Made by a program: the position numbers and the translations under genes. From assembly GCF_046105845.1 (NCBI RefSeq), contig NZ_CP151004.1: DNA of 64,000 nucleotides; one strand, written 5' to 3'. The stretch comes from Escherichia coli (GTDB taxonomy: Bacteria > Pseudomonadota > Gammaproteobacteria > Enterobacterales > Enterobacteriaceae). The notes under the pieces are model-generated. The model had not been told where the DNA came from and searched no databases. It saw only the letters and a program-made list of their open reading frames with translations. The stretch's first letter is position 1, and each line of letters begins with the position of its first letter. Below are positions 26,069 to 39,710 of this stretch, one piece after another.

Positions 26069-27829
26069 TTGACCATTACGAAACTTGCATGGCGTGACCT
26101 GGTTCCTGATACCGATAGCTATCAGGAAATATTTGCTCAGCCACATTTGATTGACGAAAACGATCCTTTATTCAGTGATACTCAACAGCGACTGCAATTT
26201 GCGCTGGAGCAGTTGCTGCATACGCGAGCATCCTCCTCTTTTATGCTGGCGAAAGCCCCGGAAGAGTCTGAGTATCTGAATCTTATTGCCGATGCCGCGC
26301 GTACGCTACAAAGCGATGCAGGCCAACTTGTGGGCGGTCACTATGAGGTTTCCGGGCACACCATCCGCTTACGTAACGCAGTGAGTGCAGATGATAATTT
26401 TGCGACTTTAACGCAAGTTGTCGCTGCCGACTGGGTAGAAGCGGAACAACTCTTTGGCTGCCTGCGCCAGTTTAATGGCGACATTACCCTGCAGCCAGGT
26501 CTGGTGCATCAGGCAAATGGCGGTATTCTCATCATCTCTTTGCGTACACTGCTGGCGCAACCTCTGCTGTGGATGCGGCTGAAAAATATCGTTAACCGCG
26601 AGCGTTTTGACTGGGTTGCGTTTGATGAGTCGCGCCCTCTCCCCGTCACTGTGCCTTCGATGCCATTGAAGCTGAAAGTCATTCTGGTAGGCGAACGCGA
26701 ATCATTGGCTGATTTCCAGGAGATGGAACCAGAGCTTTCAGAGCAGGCTATTTATAGCGAATTTGAAGATACTCTGCAGATTGTCGATGCGGAGTCAGTA
26801 AGCCAGTGGTGTCGCTGGGTGACATTGACCGCCAGACATAATCACTTACCTGCACCAGGAGCGGATGCCTGGCCGGTACTTATCCGCGAAGCAGCCCGCT
26901 ACACCGGTGAACAAGAAACACTTCCGCTTAGCCCGCAGTGGATCCTCCGCCAGTGTAAAGAGGTCGCCTCCCTGTGCGATGGCGACACCTTCTCCGCCGA
27001 GCAGCTAAACTTAATGCTGCAGCAGCGTGAATGGCGTGAAGGTTTCCTCGCTGAACGCATGCAGGATGAGATCCTTCAGGAGCAAATCCTGATTGAAACC
27101 GAAGGCGAACGCATCGGGCAAATTAACGCCCTTTCGGTCATTGAATTTCCGGGTCATCCACGCGCTTTTGGCGAACCTTCTCGCATTAGCTGCGTTGTGC
27201 ATATTGGCGATGGTGAATTCACCGACATCGAACGCAAAGCGGAGCTTGGCGGCAATATCCATGCGAAAGGGATGATGATCATGCAGGCGTTCCTGATGTC
27301 GGAACTACAGCTTGAGCAACAGATCCCCTTCTCAGCATCGCTGACATTTGAGCAGTCATACAGTGAAGTGGATGGCGATAGTGCCTCGATGGCTGAACTC
27401 TGCGCCCTGATAAGCGCCCTCGCCGATGTGCCGGTGAATCAGAGTATCGCTATCACAGGTTCAGTCGATCAGTTCGGTCGTGCCCAGCCGGTCGGTGGTT
27501 TAAATGAGAAAATCGAAGGCTTCTTTGCTATTTGCCAGCAACGTGAGTTAACCGGGAAACAAGGTGTCATTATCCCCACTGCTAACATTCGCCATTTAAG
27601 TCTTCACAGTGAACTGGTGAAAGCGGTAGAAGAAGGCAAATTCACCATCTGGGCAGTAGACGATGTGACTGACGCACTGCCGTTATTATTAAATCTGGTG
27701 TGGGATGGCGAAGGCCAAACGACGCTGATGCAAACCATCCAGGAACGTATCGCGCAAGCATCGCAACAGGAAGGACGTCACCGTTTTCCATGGCCATTAC
27801 GTTGGCTGAACTGGTTTATTCCGAACTGA
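26069..27829 (+). CDS. ycbZ: Lon-like protease homologue YcbZ (no recognisable AAA+ Walker A motif)
   Basis: 586-aa ORF; Lon S16 protease domain with Ser in DGDSAS and Lys in GGLNEKIEG; recognised as YcbZ. Confidence 0.93.
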
Positions 27830-27859
27830 TCGGACTTGTTCAGCGTACACGTGTTAGCT
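27824..27859 (+). promoter_or_regulatory. fabA operators: FadR site (27824..27840) and FabR palindrome (27842..27859)
   Basis: AACTGATCGGACTTGTT resembles the FadR consensus AACTGGTCNGACCAGTT; AGCGTACACGTGTTAGCT matches the FabR operator as recalled; FadR site contains the ycbZ stop codon. Confidence 0.7.
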
Positions 27860-27897
27860 ATCCTGCGTGCTTCAATAAAATAAGGCTTACAGAGAAC

Positions 27898-28416
27898 ATG
27901 GTAGATAAACGCGAATCCTATACAAAAGAAGACCTTCTTGCCTCTGGTCGCGGTGAACTGTTTGGCGCTAAAGGCCCGCAATTGCCAGCACCAAACATGC
28001 TGATGATGGACCGTGTGGTCAAAATGACCGAAACGGGTGGTAACTTCGACAAAGGGTATGTTGAAGCAGAACTGGATATCAATCCGGATCTGTGGTTCTT
28101 CGGATGCCACTTCATTGGCGATCCGGTTATGCCGGGATGCCTGGGCCTGGACGCAATGTGGCAGCTGGTAGGGTTCTACCTCGGCTGGCTGGGCGGCGAA
28201 GGTAAAGGCCGCGCGCTGGGCGTTGGCGAAGTGAAATTCACTGGTCAGGTACTGCCGACAGCGAAAAAAGTGACCTACCGTATTCACTTTAAACGCATTG
28301 TTAACCGTCGTCTGATTATGGGCCTGGCGGATGGCGAAGTGCTGGTTGATGGTCGTTTGATCTATACCGCCAGCGACCTGAAAGTCGGTCTGTTCCAGGA
28401 TACGTCTGCCTTCTGA
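27898..28416 (+). CDS. fabA: 3-hydroxydecanoyl-ACP dehydratase/isomerase
   Basis: ORF trimmed to [23 protein letters not shown] (172 aa). Confidence 0.97.
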
Positions 28417-28443
28417 TTATAATCAGACAGAGTATCAAAAGGC

Positions 28444-28473
28444 GAAACCTCCGCAATGCGGAGGTTTCTTTTT
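28444..28473. terminator. Bidirectional terminator between convergent fabA and rmf
   Basis: GAAACCTCCGC-aat-GCGGAGGTTTC followed by TTTTT. Confidence 0.75.
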
Positions 28474-28485
28474 AAAGAGACAGAA

Positions 28486-28653
28486 TCAGGCCATTACTAC
28501 CCTGTCCGCCATGGCTTCTCGCCAGCCTCCCAGCCATTGTGACCTTTGATTCAGCGTCTGATAGGGACACATTTCTTTTGAGCGTCCGGCGATGCCGGCC
28601 TGATAACCACGTTGATGTGCCCGTTCCAGGCGATCTCGTTTTTGTCTCTTCAT
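28486..28653 (-). CDS. rmf: Ribosome modulation factor
   Basis: Minus-strand translation gives MKRQKRDRLERAHQRGYQAGIAGRSKEMCPYQTLNQRSQWLGGWREAMADRVVMA (55 aa); ORF track shows only a different-frame 65-aa ORF at 28472..28669. Confidence 0.93.
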   Translation of the reverse strand: MKRQKRDRLERAHQRGYQAGIAGRSKEMCPYQTLNQRSQWLGGWREAMADRVVMA

Positions 28654-28852
28654 GCCTCGTTTCCCTCATACTGGTTTCTGGTGGAAAAGAAAACAGTGAT
28701 TACTAAATGTGCAATCACAGTTAAGCAATACCGCGAATCATAACTGCCGTCAATGCGCAAAATTCACGCCACTGTCATATTTGTGAGCTACACGGGCATG
28801 TCGGTTGTACAAAAAATGTGAAGAGGAACAACTTTTTCCGCAAGTTAGAAAC

Positions 28853-38589: not shown

Positions 38590-39600
38590 TCAGATATTGC
38601 TAACGATTTCTTTAATCAAAGGCGGACCTTTAAAAATAAAACCAGAATAAATTTGCACCAGTGAGGCCCCCGCAGCAATCTTTTCACGCGCAGCGATAAC
38701 CGAGTCAATGCCGCCAACACCGATGATCGGTAAGCGACCGTTTAATTCCTGTGACAAGCGGCGAATAATTTCTGTGCTTTTTAACTGAAGCGGACGACCA
38801 CTTAAGCCACCGGTTTGATCACAATTTTTCATTCCCTGAACCAGAGAACGATCGAGCGTGGTATTGGTTGCAATAACGCCATCAATATTATGGCGAACTA
38901 AACTATCGGCAACCTGGATCAATTCTTCTTCAGAAAGATCCGGCGCGATCTTCACTGCGATCGGCACATATTTATGGTGCATCGCTTGCAAATCATTTTG
39001 CTTATTTTTAATCGCGGTTAAGAGATCATCCAGCGCTTCGCCATATTGCAGAGTACGTAATCCCGGTGTATTCGGCGATGAAATATTGATGGCGATATAT
39101 CCCGCATAAGCATAGATTTTTTCCATACAAATCAGATAGTCATCTTTACCCTGCTCCACCGGCGTATCTTTATTTTTGCCGATGTTAATACCCAGGACGC
39201 CATCATAATGGGCTTTTTTTACGTTCTCTACGAGGTTATCAACGCCAAGATTATTAAAGCCCATACGGTTGATCAAACCTTCGGCATCTACCAGACGAAA
39301 GAGACGCGGCTTGTCATTACCTGGCTGTGGACGTGGCGTGACGGTACCGATCTCGATCGATCCAAATCCCATCGCGCCTAACGCGTCAATGCACTCCCCG
39401 TCTTTATCAAGACCGGCTGCCAGACCAAGCGGATTTTTAAACGTCAGGCCCATGCAGTTAACAGGTTTCGCAGGCACTTTCTGCCGCACCAGTGCTTCAA
39501 ACGGCGTTCCTGTAATACGGCGTAATTGCTGAAAAGTAAACTCATGAGCGCGCTCTGGATCGAGCTGGAAAAGGGCTTTACGAACGAAGGGGTAGTACAT
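38590..39600 (-). CDS. pyrD: Dihydroorotate dehydrogenase (quinone)
   Basis: ORF trimmed to [20 protein letters not shown] (336 aa). Confidence 0.95.
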
Positions 39601-39710
39601 GAACTCTCCTGGATTCCCGGTGTGCAAACCGGGGGCGTATTATGTGCGAGTTCGGACCAAAAGGGAATTGACCTGTGGCAAAAAAAGCGCAAACGTTTTC
39701 CGAGCCTGTT

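Follow-up and report, generated by a model that had tools for sequence, protein, structure and literature searches.

The ycbZ-fabA locus

The window, meaning the whole 64,000-nucleotide stretch of DNA that was analysed, is part of an E. coli chromosome, and its positions 27780-27900 are identical to K-12 MG1655. Window coordinates (x) were converted to K-12 coordinates as 1044368 - x. According to the RefSeq annotation of an identical E. coli record and of K-12, the gene order is ompA, matP, ycbZ, fabA, rmf, pqiC, pqiB. The product of ycbZ ends in WFIPN, followed by a TGA stop codon, and a gap of 68 bp separates this gene from the ATG of fabA. The balance between unsaturated and saturated membrane fatty acids is set by fabA, whose promoter is a textbook case of an activator that is released by its ligand. 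The features of the locus are collected in Table 1.

Table 1. Genes and control elements at the ycbZ-fabA junction, in window coordinates
Feature	Position	Strand	Basis
ycbZ CDS, Lon-like AAA ATPase, 586 aa	26069..27829	+	ORF list; RefSeq annotation (identical E. coli record, K-12); codon-position conservation up to the stop
Published CpxR footprint for fabA, -287 to -255 from the ATG	27611..27643	+	Coordinates converted from Xu et al. 2020
Published third fabA start, S3, 203 bp upstream of the ATG	~27695	+	Xu et al. 2020
FadR operator AACTGATCGGACTTGTT, 17 bp, activator site	27824..27840	+	Inside the published fabA EMSA probe; conservation
ycbZ stop TGA, positions 4-6 of the FadR box	27827..27829	+	Sequence
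Putative -35-like hexamer TTGTTC of the FadR-dependent promoter	27836..27841	+	17 bp upstream of the conserved -10
FabR operator AGCGTACACGTGTTAGCT, 18-bp imperfect palindrome, repressor site in the promoter spacer	27842..27859	+	Repeat search, motif match, conservation
Putative -10 hexamer TATCCT	27859..27864	+	TAnnnT pattern; 5 nt upstream of the deduced start
Main (annotated) fabA start, within ~2 nt	27870	+	Deduced; K-12 1016498
Conserved block A.TAAAATAAGGCTTA of the fabA 5' UTR, with likely ribosome-binding AAGG	27874..27889	+	Column conservation; putative function
fabA CDS, 3-hydroxydecanoyl-ACP dehydratase/isomerase	27898..28416	+	ORF list; RefSeq annotation
Bidirectional intrinsic terminator of fabA and convergent rmf; first terminator downstream of ycbZ	28444..28468	both	Terminator scan and Term-seq

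A 501-bp query around the junction found a match in 5,425 of 5,426 complete E. coli genomes, with at least 99% identity in 5,413, and both ycbZ and fabA were annotated beneath the match. One genome in this collection had no match, and four matches lay on records labelled as plasmids. Over positions 27815-27897, 56 of the genomes differed by at least one base; one of the variants carries a synonymous G-to-A change at 27823, outside both operator boxes. An Rfam scan of the whole window reported only a PyrD leader (97.9 bits) and one tRNA, at 39595-39668 (-) and 12656-12740 (+); judged by its K-12 position, the tRNA is probably serT.

Side-by-side FadR and FabR operators upstream of fabA

The sequence-only reading of this DNA had proposed that a FadR-like site includes the ycbZ stop codon, that a FabR palindrome follows one base later and that about 40 bp remain before the fabA ATG. 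The positions in Table 1 bear out this layout: the TGA lies inside the FadR box, a single C (27841) separates the two boxes, and 38 bp were counted from the end of the FabR box to the ATG. The proposed identity of the two operators also agrees with published probes and motifs. The published FadR gel-shift oligonucleotide 'fabA-F' is an exact 56-mer from the window, starting at 27815, and both boxes fall inside the published fabA gel-shift probe. Within the FabR box, which the repeat search also reported as a palindrome, 14 of 18 positions are self-complementary, and 17 of 18 match AGCGTACACGTGTTCGCT, the E. coli FabR motif as quoted from Feng and Cronan (2011). FabR occupancy of the fabA promoter was reported by ChIP-qPCR in Salmonella, and a suppressor mutation, PfabA(-19G>A), which raises expression, was reported inside the FabR site.

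How far the boxes stand out in the window depended on the search. When up to three mismatches were allowed, AACTGATCGGACTTGTT and AGCGTACACGTGTTAGCT each occurred once in the 64 kb (expected, 0.13 and 0.05 occurrences, respectively). A mismatch search with these sequences themselves is circular, and we therefore built an independent FadR weight matrix. Among 127,968 positions, 27824 came first when the matrix comprised six other published sites, fabB included, and sixth when it was restricted to the five sites of fad genes, with a score then near the top of the background. Because of this sixth rank, sequence alone is weak evidence for the fabA FadR site and would not single it out. With the FabR box of fabB as the query, the best match in the window was at 27842, tied at four mismatches with 36608. 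A 7-bp inverted repeat, GCTGAAC...GTTCAGC (27805-27811 and 27838-27844), brackets the FadR box; we rejected it as a real element, and it is probably due to chance, its left arm being variable coding sequence in other genera.

Conservation was determined as column identity to E. coli, using one sequence per genus from 38 genera. Identity was 0.95 in the FadR box, 0.98 in its core and 0.93 in the FabR box, as compared to 0.69 in the last 124 nt of ycbZ, where codon positions 1 and 2 scored 0.80 and third positions scored 0.47.

The same module is found at two other promoters. In fabB, the FadR and FabR boxes stand in the same order with the same 1-bp gap. The 13-bp FadR core, CTGATCGGACTTG, is identical in the two promoters, and only 2 of the 17 positions of the FadR site differ. 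The boxes share 16 identical bases, CTGATCGGACTTGTTC, followed by one variable base and then by GCGTACA in the FabR box, and GCTAT begins the -10 region in both promoters. Unlike fabA, fabB has its module in a divergent intergenic region beside mnmC, with no coding overlap, and the distance from the start of the box to the ATG is 81 nt rather than the 72 nt of fabA. In Shewanella oneidensis, which belongs to a different bacterial order, both boxes recur in the fabA promoter at unchanged spacing (AGCTGATCGGAGTTGTT, T, AGCTTACACGTGTTCGCT), and binding to these sites was documented by gel shift and SPR.

It might be argued that the boxes resemble FadR and FabR motifs by chance and do not function as operators. 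The sixth rank with the fad-only matrix and the failure of a consensus scan to find a promoter (see below) would fit this possibility. Against it, the published gel shifts were carried out with probes of exactly this sequence, FabR is found on the Salmonella fabA promoter, conservation of the boxes is far above that of the flanking coding sequence, and the same module is present at fabB. The published binding data refute a chance origin, which we regard as having next to no probability. The decisive evidence for the operators is the exact identity to published probes together with the cross-species conservation. Thus, it appears, with a probability of approximately 93%, that the junction is the canonical E. 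coli fabA control region with side-by-side FadR and FabR operators. It is the same locus as the E. coli fabA promoter described previously (Henry and Cronan 1991/1992; Zhang, Marrakchi and Rock 2002; Feng and Cronan 2009, 2011), from which nothing differs.

Promoter elements and transcription starts

A consensus sigma-70 scan over 27300-28700 found no promoter; for this reason the -35 and -10 elements of fabA in Table 1 are inferred. The lack of a match is consistent with an activator-dependent promoter. The putative -35, TTGTTC, is a weak match to the consensus (3 of 6 positions) and is overlapped by the FadR box; its TTG (27836-27838) has an identity of 0.97-1.00 across genera. T27859, A27860 and T27864 are invariant in the 38 genera, giving the TAnnnT signature of the putative -10, and the first base of this signature is the end of the FabR box.

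The coordinate of the main start was deduced from a published reporter that spans -432 to +27, whose primers lie at window 27436-27896, rather than taken from a table of start sites. The base at -19 must be G, and 27851 would accordingly be -19. Relative to this deduced start, the FadR box extends from approximately -46 to -30, which would place it upstream of or over the -35, as required for activation. A review describes FadR, as an activator, to bind upstream of the -35 and to help RNA polymerase. Two overlapping fabA starts have been published, S1, which is activated by FadR, and S2, which is repressed by FabR; upon deletion of fadR, transcription moves to a promoter inside the FabR site.

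Downstream of the start, column identity over the 38 genera is mostly 0.84-1.00 in the A.TAAAATAAGGCTTA block, with 0.16 at 27875 only. The block is almost as conserved as the operators, which is more than an AAGG located 12 nt from the ATG seems to need.

A third start, S3, was described as acid- and CpxR-dependent (Xu et al. 2020), and its -10 could plausibly be TATTAT at 27684-27689. Both S3 and the published CpxR footprint lie within the ycbZ coding sequence, and part of fabA regulation is therefore located there. The earlier suggestion that the fabA promoter is packed into the 3' end of ycbZ was correct to this extent, and also for 6 bp of the FadR box, which are the last Asn codon and the stop codon of ycbZ. 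For the core promoter it went too far, as the 68-bp gap holds the main start and the -10 along with the FabR box and the -35-like hexamer.

In the mechanism that we propose, a FadR dimer would occupy the 17-bp box, whose centre lies some 38-40 bp upstream from the main start and which overlaps a poor -35, and would help RNA polymerase to initiate there. Binding of long-chain acyl-CoA would release FadR, and fabA expression would fall. One base downstream, the TetR-family protein FabR would bind the 18-bp palindrome, which takes up the spacer and reaches the -10, and FabR that is bound by unsaturated acyl thioesters would repress fabA. FabR would also control the weaker, overlapping promoter, which would become dominant when FadR is absent. 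The ycbZ reading frame would run into this module and end at a TGA that is intrinsic to the fab-type FadR box (CTGATCGG), and transcripts that begin at the ycbZ promoter or inside ycbZ would pass the operators into fabA, providing a FadR-independent component of its expression.

The ycbZ stop codon lies in the FadR box in most Enterobacterales

We surveyed the junction in Enterobacterales, using one genome per species. Loci were found with a degenerate pattern for the FabA N-terminus, which is independent of the operator sequence, and the ycbZ frame was set by tblastn. The survey gave at least 120 loci, of which 118 were usable. Among the usable loci listed, ycbZ was upstream of fabA on the same strand in 117 of 118, and in 109 of 118 (approximately 92%; 105 TGA and 4 TAA) the gene ended within a recognisable FadR box, at the position of the TGA. 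Two Erwinia species have the stop at the homologous place, with a degraded FadR box. In six of the listed loci (three Photorhabdus, Providencia, Kosakonia cowanii and Serratia symbiotica), ycbZ stops 10-28 nt earlier, and a FadR box at or close to the consensus is kept in these species. The distance from the stop to the ATG among the loci listed was 71 nt in 76 cases, 72 nt in 28 and 70 nt in 3, which together are 107 of the 109 with the stop inside the box.

Two Budvicia loci have an insertion of approximately 30 nt in the fabA 5' UTR, between the -10 and the ATG. This genus is the sole exception to the 70-72 nt distance among the sampled genera, and the inserted sequence can form a hairpin, GGGCAGAATACC...GGTATACTGCCC. 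The TAA cases are three Tatumella loci and Yersinia similis, in which the box is further changed; with so few independent events, they make no case for selection on the stop codon.

The arrangement is present in Enterobacteriaceae, Erwiniaceae, Yersiniaceae, Hafniaceae and Budviciaceae, and is absent from the sampled Morganellaceae. Since it is conserved in 109 of the 118 Enterobacterales loci listed, the overlap with the stop codon is an old layout.

Whether the TGA is kept for the sake of the operator or for the sake of ycbZ can be judged from the boxes in which it occurs. If the TGA were retained as the stop codon that ycbZ needs, the upstream gene would shape the operator beyond the demands of FadR. 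Two observations point in this direction: fab-type boxes read CTGATC where the boxes of fad genes read CTGGTC, and in the four loci in which the G has changed it has changed to A, such that TAA retains the stop. However, this explanation is largely refuted by fabB, in which CTGATCGGACTTG is identical though no gene ends there, and Shewanella fabA also carries CTGATCGG. G-to-A is the sole transition available, and the four TAA cases amount to about two independent events. Furthermore, the six species that end ycbZ earlier retain the box nonetheless, and loss of the TGA would add only a short tail to the protein, up to the next in-frame stop. We therefore consider a dual-coding role of the TGA to be highly improbable. 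The simplest reading of these alignments is that the TGA belongs to the operator, because the same TGA is in the fabB box, where no gene ends, and that ycbZ would end at the first in-frame stop that it meets. The overlap reads as a by-product of a compact gene junction and not as a separate device.

Within operons, promoters that adjoin or overlap the end of the preceding gene are common in compact bacterial genomes (Conway et al. 2014); only the stop codon inside the activator site is particular to ycbZ-fabA. Neither the presence of the ycbZ stop codon in the FadR box nor its occurrence there in approximately 92% of the sampled Enterobacterales species is mentioned in the literature examined; this is a positional detail rather than a new element.

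Transcription from ycbZ into fabA

The sequence-only reading had also held that ycbZ read-through and fabA regulation are physically coupled, and had pointed to Term-seq for evidence of termination before fabA. We found no terminator-like site on the + strand between ycbZ and fabA (27830-27897). The gap contains no G+C-rich hairpin with a T run behind it, no T run comes after the FabR palindrome, and RNA folding of 27800-27900 gave no significant structure (z = -1.19). The terminator shared by fabA and rmf has a perfect hairpin with an 11-bp stem and T runs on both strands, and published Term-seq 3' ends fall there, at K-12 1015897 (-) and 1015926/7 (+). The Term-seq tables of Adams et al. (2021), with curated 3' ends from three growth conditions, assign none to ycbZ or to the fabA 5' region, which could reflect low expression of ycbZ, and fabA is named in them solely for lying antisense to the rmf terminator. 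In the RNA-seq map of Conway et al. (2014), ycbZ and fabA form an operon with primary, internal and secondary promoters. Because no terminator separates the two genes, transcripts should continue from ycbZ into fabA, and the same strand, the short gap and the terminator-free junction together are a co-transcription layout. Thus, read-through in the sense of co-transcription is supported by the operon map, the Term-seq data and the terminator scan, and this part of the earlier claim stands.

A published Rho-dependent termination region lies antisense to ycbZ, at window position ~27812 (-), which is K-12 1016556 (+) (Rho score, 3.4; p = 6e-5). It is presumably the end of rmf read-through that runs antisense across fabA and its promoter, and the coordinate is coarse, being derived from 800-nt windows. 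A transcription-factor roadblock as its origin was considered and rejected, both because the coordinate is coarse and because a polymerase arriving from rmf would already have passed the two operators there.

For an estimate of how much fabA mRNA might come from ycbZ, we calculated read densities from published counts per million, over 1761 nt for ycbZ and 519 nt for fabA. In the wild type, the counts were ~471 for ycbZ (0.27 per nt) and ~683 for fabA (1.32 per nt); in a yhdP fadR double mutant they were ~384 (0.22 per nt) and ~155 (0.30 per nt), respectively. Without FadR, the density of fabA was thus only about 1.4 times that of ycbZ, in a comparison that ignores mRNA stability and the internal S3 promoter. 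At this ratio, the residual fabA mRNA could in principle be largely read-through.

It is possible that the coupling goes beyond co-transcription: read-through might displace FadR and FabR or occlude the fabA promoter, or bound FadR and FabR might block read-through, such that transcription of ycbZ would influence fatty-acid sensing and be influenced by it, with read-through making up much of the FadR-independent fabA mRNA. The terminator-free junction in a published operon, the ratio of about 1.4 and the rigidly conserved geometry of the junction are all compatible with such coupling. In contrast, residual FadR-independent expression has already been assigned to the mapped promoter inside the FabR site, where a point mutation raises expression. 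Within ycbZ, no roadblock-type 3' ends appear in the Term-seq tables, and the limits on the read densities apply here as well. Conservation of the operators and of the ycbZ C-terminus explains the geometry well enough. Functional coupling of this kind is therefore unlikely in our judgement, and so is a significant share of read-through in the residual FadR-independent fabA mRNA, for which the odds are, if anything, slightly lower. The stronger proposal, that ycbZ read-through supplies a large share of this mRNA and that FadR and FabR at the junction modulate it, is more doubtful still.

Discussion

The operators and the co-transcription of ycbZ and fabA were already known, and the sequence-only reading was essentially right about both. 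In our analysis, the sequence, the positions of the elements, their conservation and the lack of a terminator were determined directly, and protein binding, start sites and the operon map were taken from published work; the exact -35 and -10 and the size of the read-through contribution were inferred.

The layout has a practical consequence: if a clean deletion of ycbZ extended to its last six bases, the FadR site would be damaged, which could matter for deleting ycbZ or for engineering fabA expression. Our analysis makes two modest additions. Published read counts leave room for noticeable read-through from ycbZ into fabA when FadR is off; if a large share of the FadR-independent fabA mRNA did arise in this way, and FadR or FabR modulated it, the rigid geometry of a stop codon within the operator would reflect selection on a shared transcription unit. 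Furthermore, the activator box of fabA has held the stop codon of ycbZ across most Enterobacterales, with exceptions in Photorhabdus, Providencia and a few single species.
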